From assembly GCA_965262715.1 (NCBI GenBank), contig OZ253553.1:528830-592829 (forward strand): a stretch of DNA of 64,000 bases, in the 5' to 3' direction. The notes beneath the pieces are model-generated. The model was not told the origin of the DNA and did no database searches. It saw only the letters and a program-made list of their open reading frames with translations. Below are positions 4,324 to 29,310 of the stretch, piece by piece. The translations under genes and the position numbers were made by a program. The DNA comes from Bdellovibrionales bacterium (GTDB lineage Bacteria > Bdellovibrionota > Bdellovibrionia > Bdellovibrionales > JAUICD01). Each line of letters opens with the position of its first letter. Within the stretch, counting starts at the first letter, position 1.

Positions 4324-4444
4324 ATTAAAATTCAAAAAGGCATTAATGGATCTATCTTTTTTTAATATATAAAATAGTTTACAAGAGAGGTTTTTTTATG
4401 GATGCGTAGGCAAATTGTCTACAAACAGGTTTTGTTACCTAAAG

Positions 4445-4560
4445 GCAATTTGCCAGATGACTGATTTACCTGATCACTGGACTTGAAATAAAGACTTAAT
4501 AAGATATAGTTTATCAATTCAATATATTCTCTTGAAATGGAAACATCCTCCAGTTGTGGA
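4445..4560. repeat. short dispersed intergenic repeat (second copy at 21447-21545)
   Basis: Shared string ttgccagat...aaataaagacttaat.a.at.tag.tt.t.aattcaatat seen at both loci. Confidence 0.6.
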
Positions 4561-4762
4561 CTTTATTATTATATTTTTTGATAATAGTAAAAGTTACTTG
4601 GCTATTAATGACTTAAAAAGCATAGATAAACTTTAAAGGAGCTTTGGAACGACTGATTTAAGTGTGTAAATAATTCATAGTTTGTGATATATAACTATTT
4701 CTTTTTTACATACAAGTTGTTTGCTATTGATAATTTGGTTGAATTTTGATATAAGACCGGAC

Positions 4763-7408
4763 ATGAAGAAAAATATTCTATTGTTATTTTATTTACTGGT
4801 CTTAACAGTTGCTCTAATTTTAAAAGAGCCTGCTTCTGCTGTAGAGGAGTCTACTCTTACTGAGGCTATCTGTCGGGATGCCTTGACTACAAAGCTATCA
4901 GATGAAAACAAAGATATCGTATCTGGTGCTATTATGATTGCTCAGCAACTTCGTCCTTCATATCCTCAAGTCAACCTCTATCATATCTTCCTTGCTGCTA
5001 TGACAGAAGTGCGTGTCGATGGTGCGCCTATAACCTACACAAACCCTAACTTATTGATTTTTTTAAGAGAACAAAAGCTATTGGGGGATTTTCAAAACTT
5101 TCTTTTAAATAATTTGGGTTCAAACCGTACTCATTTAGATTCTTTGTTTGAGAAAAAATCAGATGGCACATTCATTCTCAATTGGAATACAAGCGTGCCA
5201 TTTGATGGTAATCATGTATCTAATTTTATCTATACATTTGATGTAGAAAGACTTTTGGAAGCAATGAATCAAAACAAACAGGTAGATACTAAAAATGACT
5301 TTTTTCTTTATACTTTAGAATTTGATAATCCTATTCGAAAATTTTTCTTTGATCGTTTGACAGAACATCCTACTTTTTTAGAAAGAACTCTTGGCAGATT
5401 GTTTAGATGGCTTGACCCAACTCAAGAGAGGGCTAGAAGAATTTATTTTATGTACCCTAAGTTATTAATGCCTGAGCTCATATATGATCTGCCCAAAAAA
5501 GCCATTCCAACAAACCCTATTATTGCTTTTGATCTTATAAATAGAATAAGTAGAAACATAGCCAATGATAGTGATTATACGAATCCTTCTCCTTATTTCT
5601 CTATTGATGACCTCTGGCTCTATCCTGGCTTTTTTGATTCAGACTTTGAAAGAGATGAAACACCACCTATATGGAAAATTTTAAAACGGTGGCAACCCTT
5701 AGATGACTCCAATCGCTTTATTACCTTTAGAAAAAATCACGCCCATGTATATGGTAAAATTATAGGTTTTTCAGAAGATCATACCTCTTTAGTTATAGAG
5801 AGCCTTGATGGTCAGAAGTATGTTTATCATTTTTCAATTACTTCTAGATTTCTTTTTATGAAAAAATTTAAAAAAGTTATTGGAGATGCTTTTCTTCCTT
5901 TTTATGTTTTTAGTGATGTACTACTTGCAAGCAGAAGGTCAAAAAAGCTTTTTGATATATATGAAGAGATCAGGGGTTTAACAGAATCTCCTATACCTCT
6001 AAATCAACACACTGGGCAGCTATCTATTGATCTTTTTAGAGAATTGTTTAACTTGATAACTCTCAATAATTATTTAAGGAAACACTATCCAGAGTTAGAA
6101 GCTCGCCAAGTCTCTTTAAGTGATTTTGATGAAGCTCGTCACTTTGTTTCTTTTCTAAACTCACAGGGTGAACGTGTTCCGGGCAAACTCATTGACGTGA
6201 ATGACTATAGTGTCATTGTAGAAGACTTAGATGGTCATAGAAGCCGTATAGAAGGAGAGGCATTAAACAGAGTTTCACAAGATGAAACTGTGAGACTTTT
6301 ATTCCAATATCCTCATATTGATAGTGTAGATACTCCTGAAATAGATGGCACTCGAATTGTTCAAAGACAGGGAGAGGGAGGCCTTTCTTATGCAGGATTA
6401 GAAATGTCAGGTGATCCAGCTCAAGATGTTTTTAGAAGAGCTTTGATAGCAGGTCGTTTTGAAGGAGATGAACGGTTTATTTCATTTTTCGATGAAGGTG
6501 AGAAAAAACTGGCTAAGGTATTCTCTTGGGAGGGAAAAACAATGAGACTTCAAATATATGAGGGCAATACAGATTATAGACTGACAATAGTGCCTTTACC
6601 TCTAATTAATCCTACTGATCCTAGATTTTTAAAGGATGACTCCATCTTTTCAACTGCAGCAGTTAGTCAGACGGCAAAAGATTACTTTGAACGTATTAAT
6701 TCTTTTTTGAATAGGAGAAATATCAGGCTTGCAGCAGGTGAAGATTATCAATTCTTAAGCCATTCTATTTCTATAACCAAAGAACATAATGGTAGAACTA
6801 TTGAAATGAAAGTTGATTTAACTGATCCTTATTTGAGAAAATGGATGAGAAAGGCTACAGATATTATAAAAGAAAAAACAGAGATCACACCAGGAGCACA
6901 AAAACTTACAGCTGCTCAAAGAATTCAAATTTATCGAGTCTTTTATGAGGATATTGTTCCTTTAGTAGAAATGCCTATTCGAGAAAGATATGCTTATTTT
7001 CATGATTTAATATACAATTGGTATTATTTCGAAGGAAATAGCAAGCAAAATGAATTTCAGTTTCTTGGTCATGTTCTGGATACAAAATCAGCTATTTGTA
7101 CTGATTTAAGCGCATTTGGTGTTGTTTTACTCTCTGAATATGGTTTGCATACAAGATATATGCAGACATCTCCAAAAATGATTGAAATACTTAAAAATGA
7201 AGGCATGTATGGACATGCATGGATAGGTGTTCAACGGGAGGATGGCTCTTTAGAGTTTATAGATACAAATGGTCGAATTTTCTGGAGCACAAACCTTCGT
7301 TTACTAAGAGAAGGTTATGAAGGAGATTTTTCTCATTCAACTGATGATGAGCTACTTTCTCTTTCAGAAGAACATACTCTTATGATTCCTCCTTCTTTGC
7401 CTGAATGA
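4763..7408 (+). CDS. secreted ~881-aa protein with C-terminal transglutaminase-like core (paralog 2)
   Basis: ATG 4763 with MKKNILLLFYLLVLTVALILKEPASA signal. C-terminus has SAICTDLSAFGVVLLSEYGL...YGHAWIGVQREDGSLEFIDTNG. Collinear with 1687-4323. Confidence 0.8.
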   Translation: MKKNILLLFYLLVLTVALILKEPASAVEESTLTEAICRDALTTKLSDENKDIVSGAIMIAQQLRPSYPQVNLYHIFLAAMTEVRVDGAPITYTNPNLLIFLREQKLLGDFQNFLLNNLGSNRTHLDSLFEKKSDGTFILNWNTSVPFDGNHVSNFIYTFDVERLLEAMNQNKQVDTKNDFFLYTLEFDNPIRKFFFDRLTEHPTFLERTLGRLFRWLDPTQERARRIYFMYPKLLMPELIYDLPKKAIPTNPIIAFDLINRISRNIANDSDYTNPSPYFSIDDLWLYPGFFDSDFERDETPPIWKILKRWQPLDDSNRFITFRKNHAHVYGKIIGFSEDHTSLVIESLDGQKYVYHFSITSRFLFMKKFKKVIGDAFLPFYVFSDVLLASRRSKKLFDIYEEIRGLTESPIPLNQHTGQLSIDLFRELFNLITLNNYLRKHYPELEARQVSLSDFDEARHFVSFLNSQGERVPGKLIDVNDYSVIVEDLDGHRSRIEGEALNRVSQDETVRLLFQYPHIDSVDTPEIDGTRIVQRQGEGGLSYAGLEMSGDPAQDVFRRALIAGRFEGDERFISFFDEGEKKLAKVFSWEGKTMRLQIYEGNTDYRLTIVPLPLINPTDPRFLKDDSIFSTAAVSQTAKDYFERINSFLNRRNIRLAAGEDYQFLSHSISITKEHNGRTIEMKVDLTDPYLRKWMRKATDIIKEKTEITPGAQKLTAAQRIQIYRVFYEDIVPLVEMPIRERYAYFHDLIYNWYYFEGNSKQNEFQFLGHVLDTKSAICTDLSAFGVVLLSEYGLHTRYMQTSPKMIEILKNEGMYGHAWIGVQREDGSLEFIDTNGRIFWSTNLRLLREGYEGDFSHSTDDELLSLSEEHTLMIPPSLPE

Positions 7409-7502
7409 ACTAAAACTCAAAAAGGTGTTAATGAATCTACCTTCTTTTAATATATAAAATAGTTTATAAGAGAGGTTTTTTATGGATGTGTATGAAAAAA
7501 AA

Positions 7503-7524
7503 GCCACAAATATGAATTTGTGGC
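7503..7524. terminator. bidirectional rho-independent terminator between convergent genes
   Basis: Perfect 9-bp stem gccacaaat / atttgtggc with a 4-nt loop, flanked by an A10 run (7493-7502) and ttttta (7525-7530). Confidence 0.75.
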
Positions 7525-7558
7525 TTTTTATTTTCTAAGGAGGTTATTTTTGAAAATA

Positions 7559-9400
7559 CTATGTGTTCTTAGATGTACTTAATCTGTGTGCTGCAGAGAA
7601 CTTTGTAATCCATGTTGCTTTTTCTTTAAATTTTATACCTACTTTATTCTCTGACATCCAAACAATTTTTCCAGAGAGTGTAACATCTTCTCCATCTTGT
7701 TTTGATAGAAGGATATCCACTTGAGAGCCTCTCTTTAACTGTTGAGTAGAGTTATCTATTGAGATACCAGCACCACCCTGTGAGATAGAAAATAAATTCG
7801 CAGACATAAAGTGATTGTTGAATGAGAGGTGAAGTGGAATATCTACTTCATATCTCTGCTCTCTTCTCTTAGATTGTGATGTAGCCTTCTGCTTTAAGAA
7901 TAACCAAACCATTAAAGGGAGGGCTAGCATAAAGCTAAAAAGTGCTCTTGGCAGATGAGCGCCTCGGCCGCCTTTTCCATTATTTTTGTATGATTTCATC
8001 TGATGCAAGTTTGAATACATATTATGAACGAGTCCACAACCTCCAGCCATTGATGAGGAAGATGAAAAGACACGGCTACTGTATTCTGGCATAGCAAAAC
8101 TAGGATTGTATCCTTGAGCCTTTGAAACAGCTTTTAAAGCATTTAATCTTCTTTCATTTTGTACGTAGCCATTTAAAGATGCTACAGTATCTGCAGAATT
8201 AAGTATAATTTCCTTAACTTCATATCCATTAAGCTCTGGTTGTGCATAGAGTGTTAGTGCTGTTGCGCCTGATACATAAGGGGTTGCCATACTTGTTCCA
8301 GATAAATTAGTATTTTGGTTATTCGGATATGTACTTTGAACATTCACACCAGGAGCACTCAAATGGACAGAGGTGGTACCATAATTAGAAAAATTACTTG
8401 CAAAAATATCATTGAAGGTGGTTGCAGCAACTGAAATAACATGAGGAACTGGATAGTTGGCTGGGTAAAAAGGTATGATATCATTATTAGATGCATTATT
8501 TCCTGCTGCAGCTACAAAGACAACACCAGCATTATAACTTCTTGTAACAGCTTCATGGAGTGCATTACTGTAAGCATCGTTTCCCCAAGAGTTGTTTAAG
8601 ACTTTAGCTCCATTATTAATGGCATAATCAATAGCGCCGATAGCACTGGATGTTGAGCCAACGCCATCACATCCTAAAAACTTTAATGGCATAATACAAA
8701 AGGCAGAACTCTCTGTTGCATCACCGACAACAGTTTGCTTAACAATTCCAGCAACATGGGTGCCATGTCCATCACAATCGCTCAAATCTTTATTATGATC
8801 TGTAAAGTTCCAACCATGTACATCATCATCAAAGCCATTGCCATCATTATCATAACCATCACCAGCCACTTCCTCTGTATTATTACAGATAATACCTTGA
8901 AGATCACTATGTGTGATGTCAGTTCCTGTATCAATGACTGCAATTTTTACCATTTCATTGTTAAGAGTTTGGATGGCATTTCTCGCGGCTTCTGCAAAAA
9001 TAGGATCTGGGTTGCTATATGTAGATTGGCTGAATGTTTTATCAGTATTCGTTTTACTAATAATATAGTTAGGTTCTATATATTCTATATCTGGATGATT
9101 TCCAACTTGTTCAATAATCTCTTCAGTTGATTGACCATCTTCAATTCCACTGAAGTGGTGCATACTAAAATTATTAAAGGATTGCTGTAGTGTCAGACTA
9201 ACAGAGCCTGAAACGCCTTGAAGTGTCAAATTGCCAGTATCTTCGCTTAAGCTTTGTCTAACTGATGAACTCTCAGGAGAATCCTTAAATTTGATAATAA
9301 CGTCACCTTCAACATAACCTAAAGAGGATTGCCCATATACAGTCTGAAAATTTAAAGTGACTAATAGAATAATAGATAATTTTACTAAATGATAAAACAC
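7559..9400 (-). CDS. S8 subtilisin-family serine protease fused through a TM helix to a C-terminal PilZ-like domain
   Basis: Signal peptide present. Catalytic triad motifs AVIDTGTD, HGTHVAGI and GTSMATPYVSG. TM segment ALFSFMLALPLMVWLFL. The last ~103 aa carry RREQR (RxxxR) and SISQGG (xSxxG) PilZ-type motifs. Confidence 0.85.
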   Translation of the reverse strand: MFYHLVKLSIILLVTLNFQTVYGQSSLGYVEGDVIIKFKDSPESSSVRQSLSEDTGNLTLQGVSGSVSLTLQQSFNNFSMHHFSGIEDGQSTEEIIEQVGNHPDIEYIEPNYIISKTNTDKTFSQSTYSNPDPIFAEAARNAIQTLNNEMVKIAVIDTGTDITHSDLQGIICNNTEEVAGDGYDNDGNGFDDDVHGWNFTDHNKDLSDCDGHGTHVAGIVKQTVVGDATESSAFCIMPLKFLGCDGVGSTSSAIGAIDYAINNGAKVLNNSWGNDAYSNALHEAVTRSYNAGVVFVAAAGNNASNNDIIPFYPANYPVPHVISVAATTFNDIFASNFSNYGTTSVHLSAPGVNVQSTYPNNQNTNLSGTSMATPYVSGATALTLYAQPELNGYEVKEIILNSADTVASLNGYVQNERRLNALKAVSKAQGYNPSFAMPEYSSRVFSSSSSMAGGCGLVHNMYSNLHQMKSYKNNGKGGRGAHLPRALFSFMLALPLMVWLFLKQKATSQSKRREQRYEVDIPLHLSFNNHFMSANLFSISQGGAGISIDNSTQQLKRGSQVDILLSKQDGEDVTLSGKIVWMSENKVGIKFKEKATWITKFSAAHRLSTSKNT

Positions 9401-10047
9401 AAAAATATATCTCCCTAAAAAAGTAATGCAATCCCATTAAGATAAAGTGTTAATAAACTTTTGGTCAGTGTCTAAAAATTAGTCACTAAACTCTCTTTTA
9501 ATAACCTTTAAACTCCCTACTTATATGACATTGCAAGAAGTGCACCTAGAAATGAATCAGTGGTTATTTCAAATTGAGACATGTTAAAAGAAGGGATAGG
9601 TTAATTAAAAATGGAAGTTTTATTAGATATTATAAGAGAAGCCATAGGCTTTAAGATTAAATCCTTAAATTTGATATTTATCTAATATACATGAAATTTA
9701 ACTCTCCTACACATGCTTGTGCAACAAAGCTCATTTACACTAAATAGGTAAAGTTGATGCTTATCTCCATAAGACTTGATGCCGATCTCCACGAGATGCC
9801 TGAACTTCTTGAAAAGTGTTAGTTTTTCAAGAAAGCTGAAAGAGGTATCGAGGGGGGAACAGTGTCTCTTCTCTGATAGCAGTTAAAATGATAGCATAAG
9901 TTTGTGAAGTTGAGCGCAAAAGCTTGAATTGTAAAAGATAAATTAAAAGACCAAAAAGCTATTTATGTTAGAAGCGGCGCAAATATTTTGCGTGGCAATT
10001 ATATAATTTTTGAGATAATAGCTATTTTTGATGGAGTGACTTTTGAA

Positions 10048-13000
10048 TTAGCTGGATAAGGGAAGTTTTAAAGGAGCAGTTTGATATCCTTGGGCAAAGT
10101 CAGGTCGTCCGCCACCTTTACCATATTTTCTTAATATATCAACTGCATTGTATTTATCTGTGAGATTCTTTGTAATAGCAACCATAAGAGGAGGTTTGTC
10201 TGGATCTTCTCCAGATAGGATCACTATACCTGATTTCATTTTGTTTCTGATTTTATCTGCAATTTGCCTTAAGCATTCTCTGTCATTTGTACGGATTGTT
10301 TTTTTGACTTCTTTAACTTCATTATCTATATCTTTTGATTCTTTAATAATCTTATTAATATCTATATCCATTTCAATTCTTGATACGGTTAGTTTTTGTA
10401 TTTGTTTGTGCAAATCTTTAACTTCTTTTTTCTTTTCATTGATCCAAGTGCTAAGGTTGTTATTGATTTGAGCTTCATTTTTTGCTTCAGCCAGCTCTCT
10501 GTGGCTTTGTGAAAGGACCTCAATGGCTTTTCGTCCGGAGAGAGCTGTGATACGACGGACATTAGCACTTATGCTTTCTTCTGATGTGATTAAAAAGGCT
10601 TGAAGTTCACTTGTGTTTTTCACATGTGTTCCTCCACAAAGTTCCATGGAGGTATCTTCTCCTATTTTCACAACATGCACATTTCCTTCTGGATATTTTT
10701 CGTTGAAAAAAGCAAGAGCCCCCTTTTTTTCAGCATCTTTGAAGCTCATTATGTCTGTTGTAACAGGGAGAGTTTTTATAATTTGGTCATTAACTTGTCT
10801 TTGAATTTGCTTTTTTTGTTGATTTGTAAGAGGTTTTGGATGTGTGAAATCAAATCGCAGATAGTGATCTGTGACCAAAGATCCTTTTTGTTTTGGTTTC
10901 ATCTCCCTTTCTTCTTTTTCTCCTGCAGTGTTTATAATTTTTACCTTTTCTTTTAAAGTATCTCTTAAGATAGTGTGCAATAAGTGTGTAGCTGTGTGAT
11001 GTTTTGTTATCTCCTCTCGTCTTTCTTTGTTAATTTGTAGAAAAACTTTGTCATTAACATTTAAATGAGTTTTTACATCGATAGCATGGTAGTGCACTTC
11101 CTTATATTTTTGACAATCTGTAACTTGAGCTATTAATTTATTTGATGGATCTTTAATTTCACCTTGATCTCCAATCTGTCCTCCAGACTCTGCATAGAAA
11201 GGTGTTTGATCAAAAATAACAAAGCCTTTTTGACCAGGCTTTAGTTCTGTAATTTGTTTTTGGCCATCTGATAAACCTATGACTTGCGCGTCAGTAGATA
11301 AAGTTTTGTATCCTACAAATTTTCCAACATGATTAAGTAATTTTCCAATTGACCGATTGGTAGATTGTTCAATGATATCACTTACAAAACCTCTAAGATG
11401 TTTCTCATCTTCTTGTAAATACTTTGGTTTTGCCCTTGAAAGTTCTTGTGCTTTTCTAAGATGAGTTTCAAAAGCTTTTTCAAATACTTGATCGAACTCT
11501 TGATTAAAGCTTATCTTTTTCATCTTTCTTTTTATGAGATCTTTAGTGTTATCTTTAGAAAAACCGTGTGTTTCAAAGAGTTTAAAGGCAAACTCTCCCA
11601 GTGCTTCTGGTGTGAGAGTTTTAGATTTCATTTTTTGGTCAAGATCATCAAATTCTTTATTGAATATTTCCTCACTATCTTCAAGTTTTTTTTGAAAGGC
11701 CACTTCGATTTCTTCTGCAATTTGGTAAATTCGGCTTAGAATTTGAGACTTTTTGTTAGTTCGTTCTTGCTCTCTTCTTATAATGAGATTGATCTCTTCT
11801 CCTTCTTGGTAGAGAATCTCTTGTTGAATCTCTCTAATGAGAAGGCTCATCAACTTAGCCACATTTTTTTGGACGGGAGAGTCTTCTTGATATTGAAGGC
11901 TTTTTTGTCGATAAAACTCTTCTTGTTTTTGAAATTGATAGTGATAGATAAAAGGATCTGGGTTTTGGGTCATGATAATGTCATATAGGTAATAGCAGTC
12001 ATAAACAAAAAGAACATCAACCAATAGCACTCTTTTTAACTGAAGGAAGTTAAATGAACCAATACCAATTTGTTGAAGACAGTGCCTGACCTTTTTAAAC
12101 AACTTTCTTAAAACATAACCTCTACCTTCATTTGATGGTAATATACCGTCAAGCAATAAAAAAGCTATGCCTCTAGCATGATCTGCTATTTGACAGAGAG
12201 CTATCCGATCTTTTATTTTTCTCTCTTCATCTATCTTTATCTTCTTAGGAGAAAGAAGCCCTCTTTCTTTTTGGAACTCCTCACACACAAAATCTAGAAA
12301 AGCAGTTCTAAGAGAACCATTTTCTGCTCTCTTAAGTATATAATATATCATGTTGAAATGAAGGCTTTTCTGAAATAAATATGATGCGCTTGGAGCTCTC
12401 CACTTATGAGCATCTTCCTCATTGTTTATTTTTTCTTCTTCCTCTTTGATAATTTCTTTTATTTCACTTGACCTTTTATATAAGTCTTCTAGAAATTCCT
12501 TAATTATCTTTTTGGCTATTTCTTCTTCTACTTGCTCTTGTTTGTTTAATTGATAATGTTGGCTTTTAAAGGTTTTCCATACATCTGACTCTAGTTTGCA
12601 ATTTAATACTTTATAAAAAGTATCGATAAATAAGTCAGCTTCAAAATTACTATTTACTCTTTGGGTAACAGCTGTGAGTCTTTCTAACCCAGCCCCTGTA
12701 TCTACACAAGGGTGAGGTAGAGGTAGTCTACTACCATCAGCTTGTTGATCAAATTGCATAAAGACTAAGTTCCAAATCTCTACATCTTGCTGTCCATAAT
12801 GATAAAAGACTTCACTGCAAGGCCCGCAAGGTCCTGTATTAGCCATTTTCCAAAAATTATCACTATCTTTTTTGATAAAATCATATAAAGAACGCTTGAT
12901 ATCATTTTTGTCATTTTCCCAGATTTTTTTCCAAATATTAAAGGAATCCTCATCTTCATTAAAGACTGTCACATACAATCTATTTTTATCGATGCCTAAA

Positions 13001-13347
13001 TACTTTTGGTCAGTTAAAAACTCCCATGCAAATTCAATAGCCTCTTTTTTAAAATAATCTCCAAAGGAAAAATTGCCTAGCATTTCAAAAAAGGTATGGT
13101 GTCTGGGAGTATGACCAACTTGTTCTAAGTCATTAGCTCGAAAACATTTTTGTGCAGACACAGCTCTATTGTAAGGGAGCTTTTTAAGGCCTAAAAATAC
13201 GTCTTTAAATTGATTCATACCTGCATTTGTAAAAAATAGATCTTTACCTTCTGGAGTTAAGGGGGAGCTTTTACAGTGTTTATGACCTCTACTTTCGAAG
13301 TACTCTATAAATTTATAACATGTTTCATTACAGTTAAGGGGTTTCAT
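10048..13347 (-). CDS. alaS: alanine--tRNA ligase with large lineage-specific insertions
   Basis: Signatures FTNAGMNQFKDVFLG, RHHTFFEMLGNFSFGDYFK, TGPCGPCSEVFY, IWNLVFMQF, VDTGAGLERL, ADHARGIAFLLLDGILPSNEGRGYVLRK, editing-domain HTATHLLH and CGGTHV. Start placed at ATG 13347 (MKPLNCNETCYKFIEYF); the ORF extends in frame to 13422, so the start is uncertain. Confidence 0.9.
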   Translation of the reverse strand: MKPLNCNETCYKFIEYFESRGHKHCKSSPLTPEGKDLFFTNAGMNQFKDVFLGLKKLPYNRAVSAQKCFRANDLEQVGHTPRHHTFFEMLGNFSFGDYFKKEAIEFAWEFLTDQKYLGIDKNRLYVTVFNEDEDSFNIWKKIWENDKNDIKRSLYDFIKKDSDNFWKMANTGPCGPCSEVFYHYGQQDVEIWNLVFMQFDQQADGSRLPLPHPCVDTGAGLERLTAVTQRVNSNFEADLFIDTFYKVLNCKLESDVWKTFKSQHYQLNKQEQVEEEIAKKIIKEFLEDLYKRSSEIKEIIKEEEEKINNEEDAHKWRAPSASYLFQKSLHFNMIYYILKRAENGSLRTAFLDFVCEEFQKERGLLSPKKIKIDEERKIKDRIALCQIADHARGIAFLLLDGILPSNEGRGYVLRKLFKKVRHCLQQIGIGSFNFLQLKRVLLVDVLFVYDCYYLYDIIMTQNPDPFIYHYQFQKQEEFYRQKSLQYQEDSPVQKNVAKLMSLLIREIQQEILYQEGEEINLIIRREQERTNKKSQILSRIYQIAEEIEVAFQKKLEDSEEIFNKEFDDLDQKMKSKTLTPEALGEFAFKLFETHGFSKDNTKDLIKRKMKKISFNQEFDQVFEKAFETHLRKAQELSRAKPKYLQEDEKHLRGFVSDIIEQSTNRSIGKLLNHVGKFVGYKTLSTDAQVIGLSDGQKQITELKPGQKGFVIFDQTPFYAESGGQIGDQGEIKDPSNKLIAQVTDCQKYKEVHYHAIDVKTHLNVNDKVFLQINKERREEITKHHTATHLLHTILRDTLKEKVKIINTAGEKEEREMKPKQKGSLVTDHYLRFDFTHPKPLTNQQKKQIQRQVNDQIIKTLPVTTDIMSFKDAEKKGALAFFNEKYPEGNVHVVKIGEDTSMELCGGTHVKNTSELQAFLITSEESISANVRRITALSGRKAIEVLSQSHRELAEAKNEAQINNNLSTWINEKKKEVKDLHKQIQKLTVSRIEMDIDINKIIKESKDIDNEVKEVKKTIRTNDRECLRQIADKIRNKMKSGIVILSGEDPDKPPLMVAITKNLTDKYNAVDILRKYGKGGGRPDFAQGYQTAPLKLPLSS

Positions 13348-13424
13348 AAAGGGGTCCTTATTGGGGAGCATTTTTCTATAGTTAATTTTAATGAAATTCT
13401 TTATTCTTGTCAATCCTATCAATG

Positions 13425-13570
13425 ATTGATTATAGATATAGAAAGGACTTTTGGAAGGAGAAATTCATGATAAAATTTTTAGCAACAGGTTGTTATATAG
13501 GCCTAATTCCTAAGGCTCCATGTACTTTTGGCTGTTTAACTCTCTCGCTTTTTTCTATCATTAGGAAAAT
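13425..13570 (+). repeat. left direct repeat of the defence cassette (decayed copy of the pgpA upstream region and 5' end)
   Basis: attgattatagatata...tttttagcaacaggttgttatataggc.t.attcc.aa.gc.cca.g.acttttgg recurs at 18832-18980, roughly three quarters identical by eye with small indels. Confidence 0.8.
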
Positions 13571-13616
13571 GCTTTCAATAACATTCTTTAATTATTGGCC
13601 TCATTATCATTACTGA
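13467..13616 (+). pseudogene. truncated pgpA 5' fragment
   Basis: Encodes MIKFLATGCYIGLIPKAPCTFG..., matching the first ~25 aa of the intact PgpA at 18858 (MYAVIKFLATGCYIGLIPKAPGTFG), then diverges and stops. None of the downstream PgpA motifs are present. Confidence 0.75.
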
Positions 13617-13702: not shown

Positions 13703-15541
13703 CTATAAATCGAATGTTTTTAAAAACCTAGATATTTTTCTCTCTTTTTCATCTCCCCAGGGCATTTTTCTTTTTTTAGGCCAAGTGACATATAAAAATC
13801 GCTTTGACCTAGTGAAGGCCACATACAGATTATTTTCTTCTTGCTTAAGATCAATACCCTTTTTTTGTATAGCTCGATAATCAGGGAATGTTTCATCATC
13901 CATACCTATTAGAAAGACGATATCAAACTCCTGCCCTTTCATTGTGTGAACTGTACTTAATGTAATACCTTTGTGTGGAATTGATTGATGAGTTTGGCCT
14001 AATGCCATTGCATTTTTGAACTGTAGTAATGACTTTGTGTCTGTTGTACTGGCGTATTTATTCCAATGTTTTATCAAATCATCAATGTCATTAAAGATCA
14101 TATTTCTTTCATTTTCTTCGCTATAATCAGTAAGTGTATTTTTAAAACTTTTCAAAAGATATTTTAGATTATTCCCATCATCATCTAAATTTATAACTAA
14201 CTGGATAAGAGCCTTATGTTGTTTATTATTTATAGTTGATATAATTTCTTCCAGTGATTTTTCTTTTGAGATATTTGATTTTAGTTTCTCAAGGAGTTTT
14301 CCTTTATGTAATTTATCTTGAGGATTTAATTTAACTTTAAGTGCAAGGTCAAACATATTGATTAGATCAGATTCAAATTGAACTGAACCTATTCGCATTT
14401 TATAATAAAAAGGTATACCCTTAGATTTTAATTGAGTATTGATTTGATTAAAAAGATATTTATTACGGGCAAGGATAACTATTTTTTCGTAAGTGATTTG
14501 ACCTTCAATATCTGGATGTTTTTGTATAGAGACTAGTTCATTGATTTTATCAATAATCCATAAGGCTTCTTTTTCTTCATCTTCTATGCCTTGCAATTCA
14601 AAGATACCTTGTTTCACTGTGTGAGGTATGTCTTTAGCACTAGGAAATATCTTTTTAGTAGCAGATAAAACCTCTTGAGATGAACGATAGTTTTCTTCTA
14701 GTTCTATGACTTCAGGTTTAAAGTCTTTAATAAAAAACTCGGTCATATATTTTGGTGAAGATCCATTGAAATGAAAAATGGATTGGTTAGGATCTCCAAC
14801 CATCATCACATTGTCGAATTGACCTCCTGTTAGAGCCAGCAAGAATTGATATTGGGCATTATTTAAATCTTGGGCCTCATCAATACAAATTGCATAAAAA
14901 CTACGGCGGTACAAGTCCGCCACATTTGGATATTCAATAAATAGTTTGTATGCTAGAATAAGCAGGTCATCAAAGTCTATACCATTTTGACTGCTTAATA
15001 TATCTTGATAATTTTTATAAAGAAGTATTTTTTCATCATCTTTAGATTGAGAGTCTTCTTCAAGTTTACCCATATTCCTTTTAACTTTGGCTATAAATTT
15101 CAATACTTGGTATAAAAATCTTTTTTTCTTTTTCTCATCTTTATTCCTATAAATATTTTCATAAGATGGGGTTAAATTGATAGCTTGTTCTATTAGCTCT
15201 AATCTATCATTTTCGTTTTCAAATATATGAGGCATTTTTTCTAAGCCAATAAGATATCCATGATTTCTCAATGTTTTTTGACAAAATCCATGGAATGTTC
15301 CTACAAAAACTCTTTTATCTAAAGTAGATATACCATTTAATCTTTCTTTGACTTCTTCTCCCGCTTTATGGGTAAAGGTAAGAGCAAGTATCTGCTTCTT
15401 AGTTTTATCTAATAAAATTCTCACTCGTTCTGTAAGAACTCTTGTCTTTCCACTTCCAGCACTGGCTTTGACACAAATGGGCTTATCCTCAAGGTTGACA
15501 ATACTTTTTTGAGTTTCAGATAATTCAATTTTTGCTGACAT
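13703..15541 (-). CDS. UvrD/PcrA/Rep-like SF1 helicase (GajB-like)
   Basis: Walker A ASAGSGKTRVL, CIDEAQDLN, VGTFHGFC, LEENYRSS, TVHTMKGQEFD, LYVAFTRSK. Its start overlaps the upstream OLD-like gene by 17 nt. Confidence 0.85.
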   Translation of the reverse strand: MSAKIELSETQKSIVNLEDKPICVKASAGSGKTRVLTERVRILLDKTKKQILALTFTHKAGEEVKERLNGISTLDKRVFVGTFHGFCQKTLRNHGYLIGLEKMPHIFENENDRLELIEQAINLTPSYENIYRNKDEKKKKRFLYQVLKFIAKVKRNMGKLEEDSQSKDDEKILLYKNYQDILSSQNGIDFDDLLILAYKLFIEYPNVADLYRRSFYAICIDEAQDLNNAQYQFLLALTGGQFDNVMMVGDPNQSIFHFNGSSPKYMTEFFIKDFKPEVIELEENYRSSQEVLSATKKIFPSAKDIPHTVKQGIFELQGIEDEEKEALWIIDKINELVSIQKHPDIEGQITYEKIVILARNKYLFNQINTQLKSKGIPFYYKMRIGSVQFESDLINMFDLALKVKLNPQDKLHKGKLLEKLKSNISKEKSLEEIISTINNKQHKALIQLVINLDDDGNNLKYLLKSFKNTLTDYSEENERNMIFNDIDDLIKHWNKYASTTDTKSLLQFKNAMALGQTHQSIPHKGITLSTVHTMKGQEFDIVFLIGMDDETFPDYRAIQKKGIDLKQEENNLYVAFTRSKRFLYVTWPKKRKMPWGDEKERKISRFLKTFDL

Positions 15542-18500
15542 TGGTTTTATCCTTATTATTATAGTAATCTTTTATTTTATTAAACAAATTTTCTATTTTT
15601 GGAGGAAGTTTGTTACCTTTTATAATTTCTTTTGCCACTGCCTCTCCCATTCTAATCTTATCATCTTTCATAATTTCAAGAAGTCGTTCATCATCGTAAC
15701 TTTCAACTTCTTCTTTTTTTGCAGCTTTATGTTGTTCATTCTTGCAATGAAGTGATAAATAGGCTTTCTTTATTTGCTCTTGGAAGCCATTAGAAATGAG
15801 TTGCTTTTCAAAATCATTACCATCATCCAAAAAAACAACAAACACTTTTGGATCCTTCTTTATTTTAAGTACCTTGGTTTCAACTTCTCCAACAGTATTT
15901 TGATCTGCATCACTAAAGATAAAGCAAGGTATATTTAGAGATTTAGCAAACTTTATAAAAGGAGCATAATTTTTTCCTCCAACTCCTACAAAGTTTAAAC
16001 CTATATCGGAAGGATGTTTCTGAAAGAACTTTTCTGCAAAGATAGGTAGTGCTCGAGATTCAGTTTTTCCTTCTGAAAAAACAATAAAGTTTGAAAAAAT
16101 AATCTCTCCGTGAGTATGAGTCACATGAACTTCAATTTTGCTTTCATCTTCAGATGATAATCCTGTTACTTTTCCGCAGGTTACTTGATTGCTTTTATAC
16201 AATCCTCTAATTTGCCTTATCTTTGCTTTTGCAGCTACATAGGGAGAGTGGGTTGAAATGATCTTTTGGCCTTCAATAGAATTTATTTGATGATAAAGCT
16301 GTTTTTGAGCGTTTGGATGCAAATGAGCTTCAGGCTCTTCTATTGCAAGAATTGGGAAAAACACATTGTCTTGCTCTTGGAATTTTTTTGTAAGCGATGA
16401 AATAAATGCTTTTAAAGTAAGAAGTGATGACCAACTTCTTGTTCCCATACCATGATATTCCATAGAAAAACTATCTGTTTGTTCACCATAATAAATGGAT
16501 AGCCCTTTATTTAAATCTCTTACCTTTTTTGTAAAAGGTGTGATTTCAACATTGGCTTTGTCGTTACCCATAGTTGAGTTAATTTCTCCTAGTACAATCT
16601 TGATATGTGACAAAATGGCACTGCTATCAACGGCTTTTTCATTAAGTGATTTGATTTGATCTTCAATATCTTTGATGTCTTTTTCAGTATATTCTATTTT
16701 TGAAATCATTTTCCCAAGATAAGAACTTTTAAGCTTTATGTCTTTAAGAATATCTCTTTGAGCATCGATGTAAAAGAAAGGTATTTCATCAAAATAAAAG
16801 CGGATTTTATCCCCATCATCTTTATCAAACCAATTTGTATTCTTGTCTTTAAATTTTGGCCAGCCGTTTATAGAAAATTGTTTTTTTTTAAAACTATTTG
16901 TTATTGGATCGAATTTTATTTTTGTTCTAAATGGGAACTGGTTTCTATTGGAATCATCAGGATCAGGTTTAATATTTGCTGCTTGAAATACAGATACCCA
17001 ATCATCTGTGAAGTTCTCACATATATTCCCTTCATCATCAACAGGGACAATAAGAGTATCTATTATAATTTCCTCTGAAGCAGAGTTTTCTTTTATAAAA
17101 AAATCATCCTGAGAGATAAACTGGTGATTGCCAAAAGCCAATTGCAATGCATATAGAATAGAAGACTTACCAGTATTATTTGCTCCTGTTAAAACAGTGG
17201 TTTTTTCTAAATCTATTTCAATATTTTCAAGCCCTCTAAAACCTCTAATACGAATAGTTTTGATTAAAATATCCTTTGGTTCTTGCTGCTGTATTTTTTC
17301 TTCTTTCTTTTGTTGTTCCTTCTTCTTTTCCTCTTTTTGTTCTTTTGCTTTTTCTGCTTTTATTTCATTGAAAAGTTTTGCCATATCTTGTTTTACTATA
17401 TAGTCATATCTTTTTTCAAACTGGGGATAATGATCTTTTGTAATTTTTAAGATATCTGCTATAAAGCCATTTAACTTATAGAGAGGAAAAATTAATGAAG
17501 ATAGGGCTTCTTTTGCTTGAAGGATCAGGTCTCTTAATTTGTGACCATGCTGTGTATTGGAAAGAGTGATTTTATTTGCTAAAAGAAAAGCTATATCCAA
17601 TGCATATATGGGTAACTTTGAGATAGACCTAAAAGCTTCTTGCTCTTTATTTCTACAAATTTGATAAAATCCTTTTTCATCAAATGATATGGTTTTTTCT
17701 TGAGCTATTTTTCTGAGGGGATCCATAAAAAATTTCTGCTCATAAATTTTTAAAATATGTTTGCCTGTATCAGGAGTAGGTTTTTTATCTGTTGAAGGTA
17801 CTTCGAACTCTTTATCTGTTGAAGAAATGAAACCACATTCTTTAAAAAAGCTTACAGTATTTTCAGAATTGTTCCATATATAAGAAGCTATAAAATCTTT
17901 TCTTTCTTTGAGAAGAGCACGCTGTATATTATAGATGAGATATTTTTCATCCCCATCAGAAAGTTGCCAATTGCTTTCTGATATTATTTTTGTTATAATA
18001 TCTATAAAATATTGATCTCCATTAAAGAGTTTATTAAAGAATGCCTTTTTTGTAGGTTCCGATTGGTTGTTCATATAATCATAATAAGATTGGTTAGTTA
18101 TTAGATTATTATTTGTATTTGCTATAATCCCTTCAATATATTGATCAGCTAGGCCTCTTAAAAGAATCAATCTTGTTACTGAAAGATTATTTTCGACTTG
18201 AAGATTGTGAGTAATATATCTTTCGTCTTTATCAGAAAAGGTCTGTGCTAAATGAGTATTGATTTCTTCAGATCTGTTTGGTTCTTTGAGATGAATATAT
18301 TTATTTTGATAGAGTTTGAAAATAAACTCCCCTGAAATAGGCTTTTTATTGGCTATCAGTTTATCAAGTTCTTTTTTAAGTTGTTGATTATTTTGTAAGC
18401 TTCTTGAGTGTGTTATTTGCATTTTTTTACAGATGAGATCTAAAAATTGCTTTTTTCTAACAACATCATCTCCTTTTAAAACACTCATTAGTTTTTCAAA

Positions 18501-18776
18501 AAAAGATTCTTCACTACTTCTATTGTAATAAGGAGGAAAAGGAAGAAACTCCTGACGAACTCTTGGAATATCTGAAAAAGGCAAAACCCAATCTATATCT
18601 TGGTTGTTAGAAATGCTTAGGTTAGCAATAATAGGCAAAAGCTGATCTTCAAATAAAATATCTTTATGTCCTTGTCCTTCTTCAAGTGCCTTGAAATATT
18701 CAATAAACCTTTGACGTATTTCATCACTGGTTAAATGTTTCATAATTGACCTATTTTGATTAATGCATACTTTCAC
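15525..18776 (-). CDS. OLD-family ATPase + Toprim nuclease (GajA-like) with ~500-aa N-terminal AlaRS-like extension
   Basis: C-terminal ~580 aa carry Walker A GANNTGKSS, ILAIEEPEAHLHPNAQ, ISTHSP, and Toprim FSEGKTE ... FIFSDADQ. A K/E-rich linker lies at about aa 471-503. The N-terminal region is described in findings. Start is GTG 18776 or, more likely, ATG 18743 (MKHLTSDEIRQ). Confidence 0.85.
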   Translation of the reverse strand: MKVCINQNRSIMKHLTSDEIRQRFIEYFKALEEGQGHKDILFEDQLLPIIANLSISNNQDIDWVLPFSDIPRVRQEFLPFPPYYNRSSEESFFEKLMSVLKGDDVVRKKQFLDLICKKMQITHSRSLQNNQQLKKELDKLIANKKPISGEFIFKLYQNKYIHLKEPNRSEEINTHLAQTFSDKDERYITHNLQVENNLSVTRLILLRGLADQYIEGIIANTNNNLITNQSYYDYMNNQSEPTKKAFFNKLFNGDQYFIDIITKIISESNWQLSDGDEKYLIYNIQRALLKERKDFIASYIWNNSENTVSFFKECGFISSTDKEFEVPSTDKKPTPDTGKHILKIYEQKFFMDPLRKIAQEKTISFDEKGFYQICRNKEQEAFRSISKLPIYALDIAFLLANKITLSNTQHGHKLRDLILQAKEALSSLIFPLYKLNGFIADILKITKDHYPQFEKRYDYIVKQDMAKLFNEIKAEKAKEQKEEKKKEQQKKEEKIQQQEPKDILIKTIRIRGFRGLENIEIDLEKTTVLTGANNTGKSSILYALQLAFGNHQFISQDDFFIKENSASEEIIIDTLIVPVDDEGNICENFTDDWVSVFQAANIKPDPDDSNRNQFPFRTKIKFDPITNSFKKKQFSINGWPKFKDKNTNWFDKDDGDKIRFYFDEIPFFYIDAQRDILKDIKLKSSYLGKMISKIEYTEKDIKDIEDQIKSLNEKAVDSSAILSHIKIVLGEINSTMGNDKANVEITPFTKKVRDLNKGLSIYYGEQTDSFSMEYHGMGTRSWSSLLTLKAFISSLTKKFQEQDNVFFPILAIEEPEAHLHPNAQKQLYHQINSIEGQKIISTHSPYVAAKAKIRQIRGLYKSNQVTCGKVTGLSSEDESKIEVHVTHTHGEIIFSNFIVFSEGKTESRALPIFAEKFFQKHPSDIGLNFVGVGGKNYAPFIKFAKSLNIPCFIFSDADQNTVGEVETKVLKIKKDPKVFVVFLDDGNDFEKQLISNGFQEQIKKAYLSLHCKNEQHKAAKKEEVESYDDERLLEIMKDDKIRMGEAVAKEIIKGNKLPPKIENLFNKIKDYYNNKDKTNVSKN

Positions 18777-18831
18777 TATAAAGTGCTTAACTACTTATAA
18801 AGTTTATCAAATTTCTTACTGGTTGTCATTT

Positions 18832-18980
18832 ATTGATTATAGATATAAAAAAGAAACATGTATGCTGTGATAAAGTTTTTAGCAACAGGTTGTTATATAG
18901 GCTTGATTCCAAAAGCCCCAGGCACTTTTGGGACTTTACTTGGTATTCCGCTTTCTTATCTTTTTTTATTGTTAGGAGAA
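18832..18980 (+). repeat. right direct repeat of the defence cassette (functional pgpA upstream region and 5' end)
   Basis: See 13425-13570. Confidence 0.8.
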
Positions 18981-19307
18981 TATGGCTATTACATAGCTAC
19001 TTTATTGTTTATATCTTTATCTATTGTTATTGCTGAACTTTATGATAGAACTTTAAAAGAGCATGATCATCAAACAATTGTTATTGATGAAGTAGCAGGT
19101 TATCTAGTTGCCTTTGCAGCACTGCCGTTTCAGGTGTTTTGGGTAGTGCTTGCGTTTTTGCTTTTTAGGTTTTTTGATGTTCTTAAGCCATTTCCTATCA
19201 ATCGTCTTGATCGTATGAAAGGTGGTTTAGGGATTGTTTTAGATGACCTAGGCGCTGGACTTATTACAAATGTTATTTTACAAATTTTATTTTGGCAGAT
19301 AGGTTAA
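18858..19307 (+). CDS. pgpA: phosphatidylglycerophosphatase A
   Basis: KAPGTFGTLLGIPL, VIDEVAG, FRFFDVLKPFPI and GGLGIVLDDLGAG motifs; 149 aa. Confidence 0.85.
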   Translation: MYAVIKFLATGCYIGLIPKAPGTFGTLLGIPLSYLFLLLGEYGYYIATLLFISLSIVIAELYDRTLKEHDHQTIVIDEVAGYLVAFAALPFQVFWVVLAFLLFRFFDVLKPFPINRLDRMKGGLGIVLDDLGAGLITNVILQILFWQIG

Positions 19308-27676: not shown

Positions 27677-27910
27677 ATGAAAAAAGGTATTGAAGAAACA
27701 GAGGTATCAAGATTTGGTTTGTTCATTAAACAAAAGCGTAAAAATAGAGGTATAACTCAAAAGGAGTTAGCTAGGCATGCAAGGGTCAGTTTTACATTGG
27801 TCAATCGTATAGAAAATGGAGATATAAAATTAAATATATCTTCTGTAAATAAAGTTTTGAAAGTTTTTGGATGCGCACTTGCCCCTGTTCGTTTAGAGAT
27901 TAAAGAATGA
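27677..27910 (+). CDS. hipB: XRE-family HTH antitoxin HipB
   Basis: 77 aa from ATG 27677. HTH segment GITQKELARHARVSFTLVNRIENG. Its stop overlaps the hipA start (ATGA). Confidence 0.8.
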   Translation: MKKGIEETEVSRFGLFIKQKRKNRGITQKELARHARVSFTLVNRIENGDIKLNISSVNKVLKVFGCALAPVRLEIKE

Positions 27911-29310
27911 AAAATATTGCAAATGAAGAGAATTATATGTCAGAGATAAAAAAAATAATAAATACAAAGAAGGCTTGGGTTTATTTAAGAGATATTCTAG
28001 CAGGGGAGCTTGAAAAATCCGATGAGGCTTCTGTAGTTTTTAAATTCACTTATTTTAAAGATTATTTAGAAAGTCAAAACCCAGAAATAGCTCGAGCTTT
28101 TCCTAAAAGAAAAGAATCTTATATCAGTTCAGATTTACACCCTTTTTTTGATAATCTTATTGTTGAAGGATGGTTATTAACATATACAGAAAAACTTTTA
28201 CATATTCATAAATTAGATCGTTTCAAACTGCTTATGGCTACAGGAAGCGCTCCTATTGGGGCTGTAAGTGTGAGACCTGTTTATAATCAACAACCTATCA
28301 ATATGACTGAAGTTCTTTTTAATAAAAACACAGAAGTTCACTTTATTAAAGAACCTAATAAGATGAGAGATACATTTCATTTTTGTCCATCTTGTTTTCG
28401 GGAATTAGGAGGGGATGAAGTGCATAGAAAGTGTACTATAGCTATGTGGGGCACAACAAGAAAGTTGAAATTAAAAATAAATAAAGATAGTCCTGATGAA
28501 ATGTTTGGATCTACTATTTATGGAGGTTCTATATCTGGTCATCAAAAAAAGGGAATGTTTAAAATCAACAGCAGGACAGGTGAATTGGTACCTACACCTG
28601 ATAGAGCAACTCATATCTTAAAGCCATCTGGACATTTACCAGAGTTGCCAGAAAATGAACATGTCACAATGGCTATTGCAAAAGCTTTGAAATTTCCTAC
28701 ACCTTCGTTTGATTTGTTGGAATTTGAAGGCATAGGGAGAGTGTTTGCCACTGCTCGCTTTGATCGCAGTTTGGATGGAATGAGATTGCCATTGATGCAA
28801 GAGGATATGTGTCAGGTTATAGGGGTTTCAAGTGATAGAAAATATGATCTAAGTTATGAGAAGATTGCAAAAGCAATTAGAAAACACAGCTTGGCGCCTT
28901 TGGTTGATCTTTATGATTTTTATCGTAGGTTTGTTTTTTGTTATCTTGTGCTTAATGGGGATATGCACTTAAAAAATTGGTCTTTACTTGAAAGTCAAAA
29001 AGAGTTAGGTAGCTTTGTATTAGCGCCCTGTTACGATCTTTTAAATACAAGAATTTTTTTATCAAGAGAGTTAACGGATATAGCTCTACAGTTGAATGGA
29101 AAAGATAGGAATCTTACTAAAAAGGATATTTCCTATTTTGGTAAAGATATTGGTCTTAGTGCTGAAACTATTGAACTTATTTTTAGCGAGCTTTCAAGCT
29201 GGTTGGAGGTGATTAAAAAATACATAAATTTGTGTTTGCTTAGTAAGAAGTCAAAAGAAGCTTACCTTGAAGGTGTTTATAAAAGGTATAACATTTTATT
29301 AAAGAAATAA
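27907..29310 (+). CDS. hipA: HipA-family serine/threonine kinase toxin
   Basis: MQEDMCQVIGVSSDRKY and NGDMHLKNWSLL match the HipA C-terminal kinase motifs. N-terminal coupling region present. CxxC...HxxC element FCPSCFRELGGDEVHRKC. Confidence 0.8.
   Translation: MKNIANEENYMSEIKKIINTKKAWVYLRDILAGELEKSDEASVVFKFTYFKDYLESQNPEIARAFPKRKESYISSDLHPFFDNLIVEGWLLTYTEKLLHIHKLDRFKLLMATGSAPIGAVSVRPVYNQQPINMTEVLFNKNTEVHFIKEPNKMRDTFHFCPSCFRELGGDEVHRKCTIAMWGTTRKLKLKINKDSPDEMFGSTIYGGSISGHQKKGMFKINSRTGELVPTPDRATHILKPSGHLPELPENEHVTMAIAKALKFPTPSFDLLEFEGIGRVFATARFDRSLDGMRLPLMQEDMCQVIGVSSDRKYDLSYEKIAKAIRKHSLAPLVDLYDFYRRFVFCYLVLNGDMHLKNWSLLESQKELGSFVLAPCYDLLNTRIFLSRELTDIALQLNGKDRNLTKKDISYFGKDIGLSAETIELIFSELSSWLEVIKKYINLCLLSKKSKEAYLEGVYKRYNILLKK

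Follow-up and report, generated by a model that had tools for sequence, protein, structure and literature searches.

The closest described relatives of the locus reported here are canonical Gabija systems, for example that of Bacillus cereus VD045, in which GajA, an ABC ATPase joined to an OLD-type TOPRIM domain, is encoded next to GajB. GajA is documented as a DNA nickase, and both the activation of Gabija and its discrimination between self and non-self are still debated. A second group for comparison consists of repurposed aminoacyl-tRNA synthetase paralogues, including HisZ (the regulatory subunit of ATP phosphoribosyltransferase, which resembles histidyl-tRNA synthetase), EpmA/GenX (which resembles lysyl-tRNA synthetase), and AlaX (a free-standing editing domain of alanyl-tRNA synthetase, AlaRS). 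Among OLD/Toprim nucleases, P2 Old and PARIS AriB cleave tRNA (PMC12445682). Here, we studied a window of 64,000 nt from a Bdellovibrionales bacterium (assembly GCA_965262715.1, contig OZ253553.1, positions 528,830 to 592,829 of the forward strand), which contains what its sequence identifies as a chromosomal type 2 OLD (Gabija, GajA-GajB) system between pgpA and alaS, with a GajA whose long N-terminal extension appears to be derived at both of its ends from AlaRS.

The locus resembles canonical Gabija in the end-to-end match of GajA to its profile, the Walker A and TOPRIM acidic motifs, and the overlapping gajB gene. It differs in that GajA carries an N-terminal extension of ~490 aa (related units carry a module of ~85 aa, or both) and in that the operon lies behind a copy of a housekeeping promoter, its presumed driver, with relatives holding tandem arrays flanked by junction modules. 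Compared with the N-terminal fragment of AlaRS (PF01411, TIGR00344; Escherichia coli AlaRS 1-441, e.g., 3HXU), the extension keeps the N-terminal helix and appears to keep, in the same order and in degenerate form, the DHxR-x3-FLLxDGxxPSN helix followed by helices up to YP[EQ][LF], but has no detectable motifs 1-3, none of the catalytic signatures, a middle region predicted to be all-helical, and no editing or C-Ala domain. As in HisZ, EpmA, and AlaX, a duplicated synthetase piece would have been kept for a role other than charging; those proteins are free-standing and have a recognizable synthetase or editing fold, whereas here only helical fragments persist, fused to a defense nuclease. P2 Old and AriB belong to the same ATPase-Toprim superfamily but lack a synthetase-derived domain. 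Chromosomal defense hotspots and Campbell-type integration share with this locus a duplication that flanks an insert, and the corresponding gap in one related contig (L001) also holds restriction-modification (RM)-like genes; the difference is that duplication here extended into the 5' part of an essential gene, which by exaptation became coding sequence of a defense gene, and that the junction repeat is kept at ~90% identity across units. Full-text literature searches found no report of a domain derived from an aminoacyl-tRNA synthetase on GajA or other OLD proteins, in agreement with an earlier reading of this DNA made from its letters alone (hereafter the sequence-only reading), which did not recognize the architecture as described.

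The fusion gene and its Gabija operon

The fusion is encoded by one continuous open reading frame (ORF) on the minus strand (18743..15525; all coordinates are positions in the window unless another contig is named), whose 1072-aa product consists of the ~490-aa extension and a complete C-terminal GajA of 582 aa. The PADLOC GajA model PDLC00067 matches aa 491-1061 from position 2 to position 600 of 604 (E 3.8e-201); Pfam detects AAA_15 (E 7e-29), OLD-like_TOPRIM (E 1.8e-13), and also DUF2813 in this core, and the translation contains the Walker A sequence GANNTGKSS as well as SEGKTE and SDAD motifs. The adjoining, co-oriented gajB is identified by PADLOC (PDLC00132, E 1e-229) and by Pfam (UvrD-helicase and UvrD_C). 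At the sequence level, then, the locus has the makeup of Gabija, with an ABC ATPase and OLD-type TOPRIM in GajA and GajB next to it. Most GajA homologues have no such extension: among the best 120 of the 3,088 homologues with E<=1e-30 in a search of 5.8 billion proteins, nearly all are 580-600 aa long. None of ATG, GTG, or TTG occurs near aa 491 as an internal start for the GajA core, which, as far as can be read from the DNA, would therefore be translated from the captured alaS start as part of a single polypeptide.

Host composition is ~33% GC, and since ~8% of random codons at ~30% GC are expected to be stops, an open frame of 490 codons is not due to chance. An independent 9.7-kb contig, which comes from another sample, encodes a 1072-aa protein identical to that of the window; the related contig L087 encodes an orthologous fusion of 1068 aa in the same pgpA / fusion / gajB / alaS context; and paralogous fusions of 751, 1035, and 1250 aa occur in L001 and L084/L002, the 751-aa protein being apparently truncated in a 2x-coverage assembly in which the remaining GajA is called as a separate neighboring ORF. 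The continuous fusion ORF recurs in five independent assemblies. The fusion proposed in the sequence-only reading is thus genuine, and not an assembly or frameshift artifact.

AlaRS signal at the two ends of the extension

For comparison with AlaRS we took the extension as residues 1 to ~470 of the fusion (N-ext), and profile work used a profile of the five-member N-ext family, with an alignment of 45 diverse bacterial AlaRS as the hhalign target. Family profiles were needed because the window N-ext, used alone as the query, gave nothing or marginal matches: It has no match in Pfam at E<=10 and none among PDB sequences, reaches only E 0.17 and 0.22 by BLASTP against its own alaS, and scores 16.9 bits (E 0.0014) against TIGR00344, for which the cut-off is 457 bits. 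With the family profile, the eleven best PDB matches are all AlaRS (human E 1.2e-6; E. coli and Aquifex ~1.5e-4), and they are collinear in two stretches, namely the N-terminus, where HMMER domain 1 of the profile matches human AlaRS, and profile positions 377-454, which match AlaRS ~318-396. Comparison of profiles by hhalign gave E 5.4e-8 for the N-terminal 40 residues against AlaRS 1-40, and E 1.1e-9 with a probability of 96% for N-ext 330-450 against AlaRS 250-359; against the local alaS, the tRNA-recognition block gave E 3.2e-7. One paralogue, L001u2 (...ANHAIAIAFLLADGVTPSNEGQGYIL...), exceeds the PF01411 gathering score on its own (47 vs 30.3 bits), at profile positions 275-374 of 552 only, and matches TIGR00344 at E 1.2e-11. 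In a HMMER scan of 1.84e9 representative proteins, the profile found, besides five members of the family, an AlaRS (P0127, E 2e-5) and a repeat protein whose match is spurious; the latter (P0126, E 1e-23), a eukaryotic FN3-repeat receptor phosphatase, was rejected because 12 weak matches to its repeats add up to the score.

The second AlaRS-like stretch, aa ~330/365-450, carries a degenerate form of the DHxR...FLLxDGxxPSN motif, which in the window copy reads YALDIAFLLANKITLSNTQHGHKLRD. It covers the initial ~90-120 aa of the tRNA-recognition domain, or about half of it, and ends near AlaRS position 360-375. Structure modeling adds a weak echo of the same resemblance: An AlphaFold2 model of a 170-aa sub-domain (predicted local distance difference test score, pLDDT, 70) returned six AlaRS chains among the top 50 Foldseek matches, the best being 2zze_A (probability 0.97, TM score 0.45), none of them at E<=0.001. 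AlaRS ancestry is statistically supported for aa 1-27 and aa ~330-450 only.

Between these ends lie ~300 aa in which AlaRS signal is missing. Sub-block comparisons by hhalign gave E 0.63 for N-ext 28-329 against AlaRS 22-249 and E 0.24 for 260-335 against 170-255, and in a banded global profile alignment of N-ext 28-369 with local alaS 25-377 the observed score (z = 0.6) was reached by 51 of 200 column permutations. Descent of the middle region from the AlaRS core or from the insertions of the local alaS was supported by neither test. No other family was matched among the 1.84e9 representative proteins. A low-confidence AlphaFold2 model of the full N-ext (three sequences, pLDDT 55) is all-helical without beta-sheet, with pLDDT 60-87 for aa 120-310 and <50 elsewhere, and a Foldseek search of the PDB with the full-length model returned nothing informative. 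A G-x-x-[IF]-[FL]-K-[LI]-Y motif occurs twice in the middle region, weakly in both cases (the weaker copy at aa 126-147); the two copies match each other at E 0.0028, and aa 123-158 and 310-363 show weak, non-collinear similarity to AlaRS 385-430 (E 0.0015-0.0095).

The translation contains none of class II motifs 1-3, HTFFEMLGNFSFGDY, FFEMLGNFSFGDY, TGPCGPC, or the DTGxGLER/GLER signatures, and according to Pfam the editing domain (tRNA_SAD) and the C-Ala domain (DHHA1) are found in the neighboring alaS product and not in the fusion. The sequence-only reading had treated the first ~470 aa as a degenerate aminoacylation and tRNA-recognition region that had become a pseudo-enzyme, and had named profile and structure searches among the ways to check this. 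Derivation from AlaRS at both ends and loss of the catalytic signatures are borne out, the former by the family profile and L001u2, with no Pfam hit for the window copy alone and a Foldseek result below threshold. What can be traced is the N-terminal helix and the first part of the tRNA-recognition domain; with no AlaRS signal between them, a degenerate aminoacylation core is not demonstrated. The paired motifs on which that core had been based (ESFFEKL/HTFFEML, ASYIWNN/VEIWNL, and KPTPDTGKH/LPHPCVDTG) are at chance level by both tests of the middle region. Of the two objections raised in that reading against itself, chance matching thus applies to the core pairs and not to aa 1-27 and ~330-450, and artificial joining of two genes is ruled out. 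The term pseudo-enzyme does not fit a segment that falls below the AlaRS family cut-offs and lacks the catalytic core, the editing domain, and the C-Ala domain; judged by its sequence features, the N-ext should be described as AlaRS-derived rather than as an AlaRS or a pseudo-AlaRS enzyme.

The duplicated junction and the Gabija arrays

Read along the minus strand, from high to low coordinates, the locus consists of pgpA, a 114-bp control region, the 1072-aa ORF, a 612-aa ORF, a remnant ORF, a second control region, and alaS (Table 1). Two segments of the pgpA-alaS junction occur twice, ~5.4 kb apart: Positions 13468-13538 and 18868-18938, in the 5' coding part of pgpA, are 85% identical over 71 nt, and the intergenic positions 13419-13447 and 18826-18854 are 86% identical. 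Translated comparison (tblastn) of pgpA residues q4-27 with the remnant gives 87.5%. In an alignment of 15 sequences comprising all junctions from six genomes, copies of the alaS type and of the Gabija type can be matched through the pgpA fragment, the -35/-10 pair, the 5' untranslated region (UTR), and the ATG-AAA-C start, with ATGACA-17-TAAACT of the Gabija type aligned column for column with TTGACA-17-TAAAAT of the alaS type. In the six related genomes, each Gabija unit, and also alaS itself, is preceded by a copy of the pgpA 5' fragment, promoter, 5' UTR, and first codons, and a pgpA remnant precedes alaS and each downstream Gabija unit in five related loci. Because the junction is duplicated before all units, capture of the promoter and of 5' coding sequence is supported, and the arrangement of full pgpA, control region, cassette, pgpA fragment, control region, and full alaS is the footprint of an insertion-duplication. 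The sequence-only reading was right that the region from the alaS 5' end to the pgpA 5' end appears twice; of its proposal that the nuclease gene had captured a duplicated 5' half of alaS with its promoter, the pgpA fragment, promoter, 5' UTR, and start codon hold, and a collinear 5' half is not supported.

Table 1. Features of the pgpA-alaS locus, with window positions
Feature	Position	Strand	Basis
pgpA, full-length, divergent from the Gabija operon	18858..19307	+	PF04608 E 5.6e-42
Gabija-type copy of the pgpA-alaS divergent intergenic region (promoter and 5' UTR)	18744..18857	.	Direct repeat with 13419-13447, 86%
Promoter-like site of the Gabija operon, ATGACA-17-TAAACT, TG before -10	18801..18829	-	Consensus scan and junction alignment; paralogue of the alaS promoter
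N-ext aa 1-27, AlaRS N-terminal helix relic (MKHLTSDEIRQRFIEYFKALEEGQGHK)	18663..18743	-	Sub-block hhalign, HMMER, FIEYF
N-ext aa 28-364, conserved orphan region, predicted helical	17652..18662	-	Without detectable AlaRS core motifs
N-ext aa 365-455, degenerate first half of the AlaRS tRNA-recognition helical domain (…IYALDIAFLLANKITLSNTQHGHKLRDL…YPQFEKRY)	17379..17651	-	hhalign, PDB, TIGR00344, Foldseek
Lys/Glu-rich low-complexity linker, aa 456-490	17274..17378	-	Sequence reading
Canonical GajA core (ABC ATPase and TOPRIM), aa 491-1072 and stop	15525..17273	-	PADLOC, Pfam
GajB (UvrD-type superfamily 1 helicase), 612 aa; 17-nt overlap with the end of gajA	13703..15541	-	PADLOC, Pfam
pgpA 5'-end remnant, 50-codon ORF; first ~24 codons pgpA-homologous, rest unrelated	13467..13616	+	71 nt 85% to 18868-18938
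alaS promoter-like site TTGACA-17-TAAAAT	13385..13413	-	Consensus scan, 11/12 positions; conserved before alaS in all related loci
alaS, functional, 1098 aa, two lineage-specific insertions; presumed source of N-ext	10048..13344	-	PF01411 E 1.4e-126, tRNA_SAD, DHHA1; TIGR00344 675 bits

Conservation is concentrated at the junction: Between -93 and +116 relative to the ATG, six Gabija units from four assemblies have a nucleotide identity of 88-90%, compared with 55-80% further in. Such repeats are obvious substrates for unequal crossing-over, and tandem Gabija units do occur between pgpA and alaS, two in L001 (10001-20574) and three in L084 (10001-21687), each preceded by a pgpA 5' fragment and a promoter module. 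The second unit of L084 combines N-ext, an ~85-aa module (dom85), and GajA in a protein of 1250 aa, and its third unit is decayed, with an intact 478-aa N-ext ORF followed by a 67-aa remnant of the GajB C-terminus, GajA and most of GajB having been deleted. The type of N-terminal module is discordant with groups based on GajA-core similarity, which implies repeated loss or recombinational shuffling.

The dom85 module (NIFHLDF...NQWLLLNKG) is found at L083 10025-10270, L084 10028-10273 and 15749-15994, and L085 9623-9865, either alone or between the AlaRS-derived domain and GajA; a weak Phage_int_SAM_1 match (E 0.08) is the sole hint of its identity. In L001, positions 6183-9833 between pgpA and the first Gabija unit hold RM-like genes (a 503-aa protein with a faint N6_N4_Mtase match, and its neighbors), which suggests that the pgpA-alaS gap is a general defense hotspot in this lineage. 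On an unrelated 2.1-Mb contig (L086, 10001-12469), a GajA that is 58% identical carries a different N-terminal extension of ~240 aa and lies in a type I RM/defense island, so N-terminal add-ons in this GajA subfamily are not unique to the alaS locus.

Several further features of the window were noted. The alaS product, at 1098 aa against ~875 aa for canonical AlaRS, has its two insertions at ~aa 247-375 (between motif 3 and the DHxR helix) and ~aa 436-570, both of which are kept in four related genomes. In the pgpA remnant (13467-13616, +) the ATG is intact and the 50-codon frame is still open. A HipA-family toxin kinase homologue (HipA_C, Couple_hipA) lies at 27907-29310 (+), and hipA/helix-turn-helix pairs also occur near the corresponding locus in L001 and L083. 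Three ORFs of 890-1160 aa, at 1645-7408 (+) and 41718-45188 (-), have no Pfam family at E<=1e-5. A scan of the whole window at Rfam gathering scores gave no match.

History and role of the extension

We consider it fairly probable that the N-ext, captured from AlaRS, is a maintained, non-catalytic accessory domain of Gabija GajA. Under this reading, an insertion-duplication would have copied the divergent pgpA-alaS control region, with the pgpA 5' end, promoter, 5' UTR, and alaS start, and many units would also have gained ~1.4 kb of alaS coding sequence placed before gajA. Translation from the captured alaS start would yield the AlaRS-derived N-ext, the Lys/Glu-rich linker, and GajA as one polypeptide, and the promoter copy would drive the operon. 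The captured segment would then have lost all recognizable class II catalytic motifs and evolved, under moderate purifying selection, into a mostly alpha-helical domain in which the N-terminal helix of AlaRS and the initial half of its tRNA-recognition domain can still be seen. Placed at the ATPase end of GajA in the GajAB complex, this domain would have a regulatory, sensing, or shielding function. Finally, the junction modules of ~200 bp would let units amplify, vanish, and swap N-terminal modules by homologous recombination, which would explain the tandem arrays and mosaic architectures of relatives.

The N-ext was recovered as six full-length DNA copies and two fragments, the six representing four divergent lineages in four assemblies, all of them open over ~470 codons with no stops. 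It was seen in one uncultured lineage only, on the 2.94-Mb contig of the window and on contigs from five other European Nucleotide Archive samples; homologue searches at the protein level, with the single sequence and with the profile, found two relatives only, and pattern scans of 185,579 GTDB species representatives and of JGI metagenomes did not find it. Source samples of the lineage are ERZ25766727, ERZ25067264, ERZ28763718, ERZ26693581, ERZ25069191, and ERZ25068833. A scan for near relatives of the local alaS returned AlaRS of unrelated phyla at ~50% identity only. The sequence-only reading had proposed looking for the fusion in genomes where it is not next to alaS; in the lineage where it occurs, the family was always at the pgpA-alaS locus. 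Pairwise ratios of nonsynonymous to synonymous substitution (dN/dS, NG86) are 0.32-0.58 for the N-ext (15 pairs), 0.22-0.37 for the GajA core, 0.12-0.33 for GajB, 0.07 for pgpA, and 0.08 for alaS. The N-ext values indicate purifying selection, and for the closest pair (window vs L087; dN 0.19, dS 0.31 over 452 codons) the ratio is ~3 standard errors below neutrality by a rough estimate of the error. At depth, amino acid identity of the N-ext (47-58%) is on par with that of the GajA core and GajB of the corresponding units (48-55%), and invariant residues are spread throughout, in the orphan middle (e.g., QYFIDII, RKKQFLD, and YEQKFFIDPL) as well as in the AlaRS-like ends. Together, the dN/dS ratios, the identity at depth, and the spread of invariant residues fit a protein domain under constraint better than a leader that drifts neutrally.

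A number of observations weigh against this account. Descent of the middle ~300 aa from AlaRS is undetectable by hhalign and by permutation, so that part of the N-ext may have another origin, and the structure models are of low confidence. Residues 317-363 match AlaRS 387-430 (G..AFKLYDTYGFP.DL...A.E.G..VD..GF) at E 0.0015, compared with E 0.44 for the collinear 251-276; together with the internal repeat, this means that the history of the N-ext may include an internal duplication or rearrangement, and a simple collinear copy may be too simple a description. The dN/dS of the N-ext exceeds that of the GajA core. The Gabija units of L083 and L085 have dom85 only, with the N-ext absent, and in L084 unit 1 MKHLTS leads directly into dom85, apparently by an in-frame deletion. 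In the alignment with canonical AlaRS, the N-ext has no obvious counterpart of the ~110-aa insertion of the local alaS, and both of its conserved blocks look more canonical than the local alaS does. Promoter activity at ATGACA-17-TAAACT and initiation at the captured ATG are presumed from the alignment, and the regulatory, sensing, or shielding role is probable rather than established.

The repeated loss of the domain in sister units and its dN/dS above that of the GajA core and GajB, along with the disappearance of the catalytic motifs and the lack of a separate GajA start codon, would also be understandable if the alaS segment were a translated relic, that is, a leader that supplies promoter, ribosome-binding site, and start codon and whose frame is kept open although the peptide has no function of its own. 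We regard this as unlikely. The N-ext ratios are well under 1 in 15 of 15 pairs, identity at depth keeps pace with GajA and GajB, and the invariant blocks fall in the middle region that is not AlaRS-like; further, a pure leader would be expected to shrink, yet ~470 aa have been kept in four divergent lineages.

A more specific proposal is that the AlaRS-like domain binds tRNA(Ala)-like RNA, or decoys as AlaRS, so that Gabija senses phage tRNAs or AlaRS-targeting factors or is turned toward RNA. The idea is attractive in view of the tRNA cleavage by two other nucleases of the OLD/Toprim type, P2 Old and PARIS AriB (PMC12445682). Also in its favor, what remains of AlaRS comes from the domain that recognizes the G3:U70 acceptor stem. 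In E. coli AlaRS, G3:U70 is read by Asn303 and by Tyr399-Asp400-Gly403, and N303D inactivates the enzyme (PMC6055181). The equivalent of Asn303 ("SN") is present in four of the six N-ext copies, including that of the window, but is His or Asp in the other two. The basic patch RGYVLRR is degenerate (HGHKLRD), and Tyr399-Asp400-Gly403 (YDTYG) has no collinear counterpart, there being at best displaced look-alikes of the form Y-E-Q-K-F (Y-E..F). The G3:U70-reading residues are therefore not conserved across the family; the recognition domain is detectable in its first half only, and some related Gabija units do without the domain altogether. We find such a role improbable, and it would be equally speculative to suppose that the domain is a specificity or sensor module that docks onto the acceptor stems of tRNAs or passes for AlaRS with a phage factor, thereby gating or retargeting GajA. 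If this were true, the Gabija variant would monitor the condition of the translation machinery, with the junction modules as a form of cassette shuffling that diversifies sensor heads.

Returning to capture from the neighboring gene, the source of the AlaRS-like parts deserves separate consideration, because they could have arrived with a mobile Gabija cassette from the alaS of another organism. The canonical look of aa 1-27 and 330-450 (SDEIRQRF vs CNETCYKF in the local alaS; YPQF, where the local alaS has no YPEL), the alignment over 110 columns with canonical AlaRS against 56 with the local alaS, and the absence of the ~110-aa insertion all speak for this. However, retention of ancestral residues by the copy, followed by divergence of the functional alaS, explains that look equally well. 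The junction DNA (pgpA fragment, promoter, and 5' UTR) is clearly paralogous to the local locus, and "IAFLL" and "FIEYF" are common to the N-ext and the local alaS and occur in 0 of 71 other AlaRS (among 75 AlaRS, only with the local alaS). The best BLASTP match of L001u2 is the local alaS, and the family is confined to one lineage and to this locus. The DHxR-like helix lies ~380 aa from the N-terminus of the N-ext, close to its position in the insertion-bearing local alaS (~388) as opposed to canonical AlaRS (~285). We consider a foreign source very unlikely; the sequence comparisons favor an origin from the neighboring alaS, most likely through an old duplication of the 5' region of the lineage's ancestral alaS.

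Chance resemblance, or an ORF created by an assembly or frameshift error, might be suspected from the lack of Pfam and PDB matches and the BLASTP value of ~0.2 for the window copy alone, and from the evident frameshifts in other genes on several related contigs, which are long-read assemblies of 2-4x, but it is effectively refuted by profile E-values of 1e-6 to 1e-9 with top matches that are exclusively AlaRS, by L001u2 (47 vs 30.3 bits in Pfam), and by the same continuous ORF in five independent assemblies.

As read from these comparisons, the evolutionary mechanism by which the N-ext was captured appears well documented. The locus provides a clean natural example of a defense gene that recruits the promoter and 5' coding sequence of an adjacent essential housekeeping gene, with the captured coding sequence turned into a new, selectively maintained protein domain. 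It illustrates a route of domain birth, from enzyme fragment to orphan helical domain, in which intermediates are visible, L001u2 lying above the Pfam cut-off for AlaRS and the window copy below it, and it reveals a hotspot on the chromosome in which a repeated junction of ~200 bp serves the amplification of Gabija units and the exchange of their N-terminal modules. Should the domain be a sensor or a shield, the regulation of Gabija would gain a new layer.

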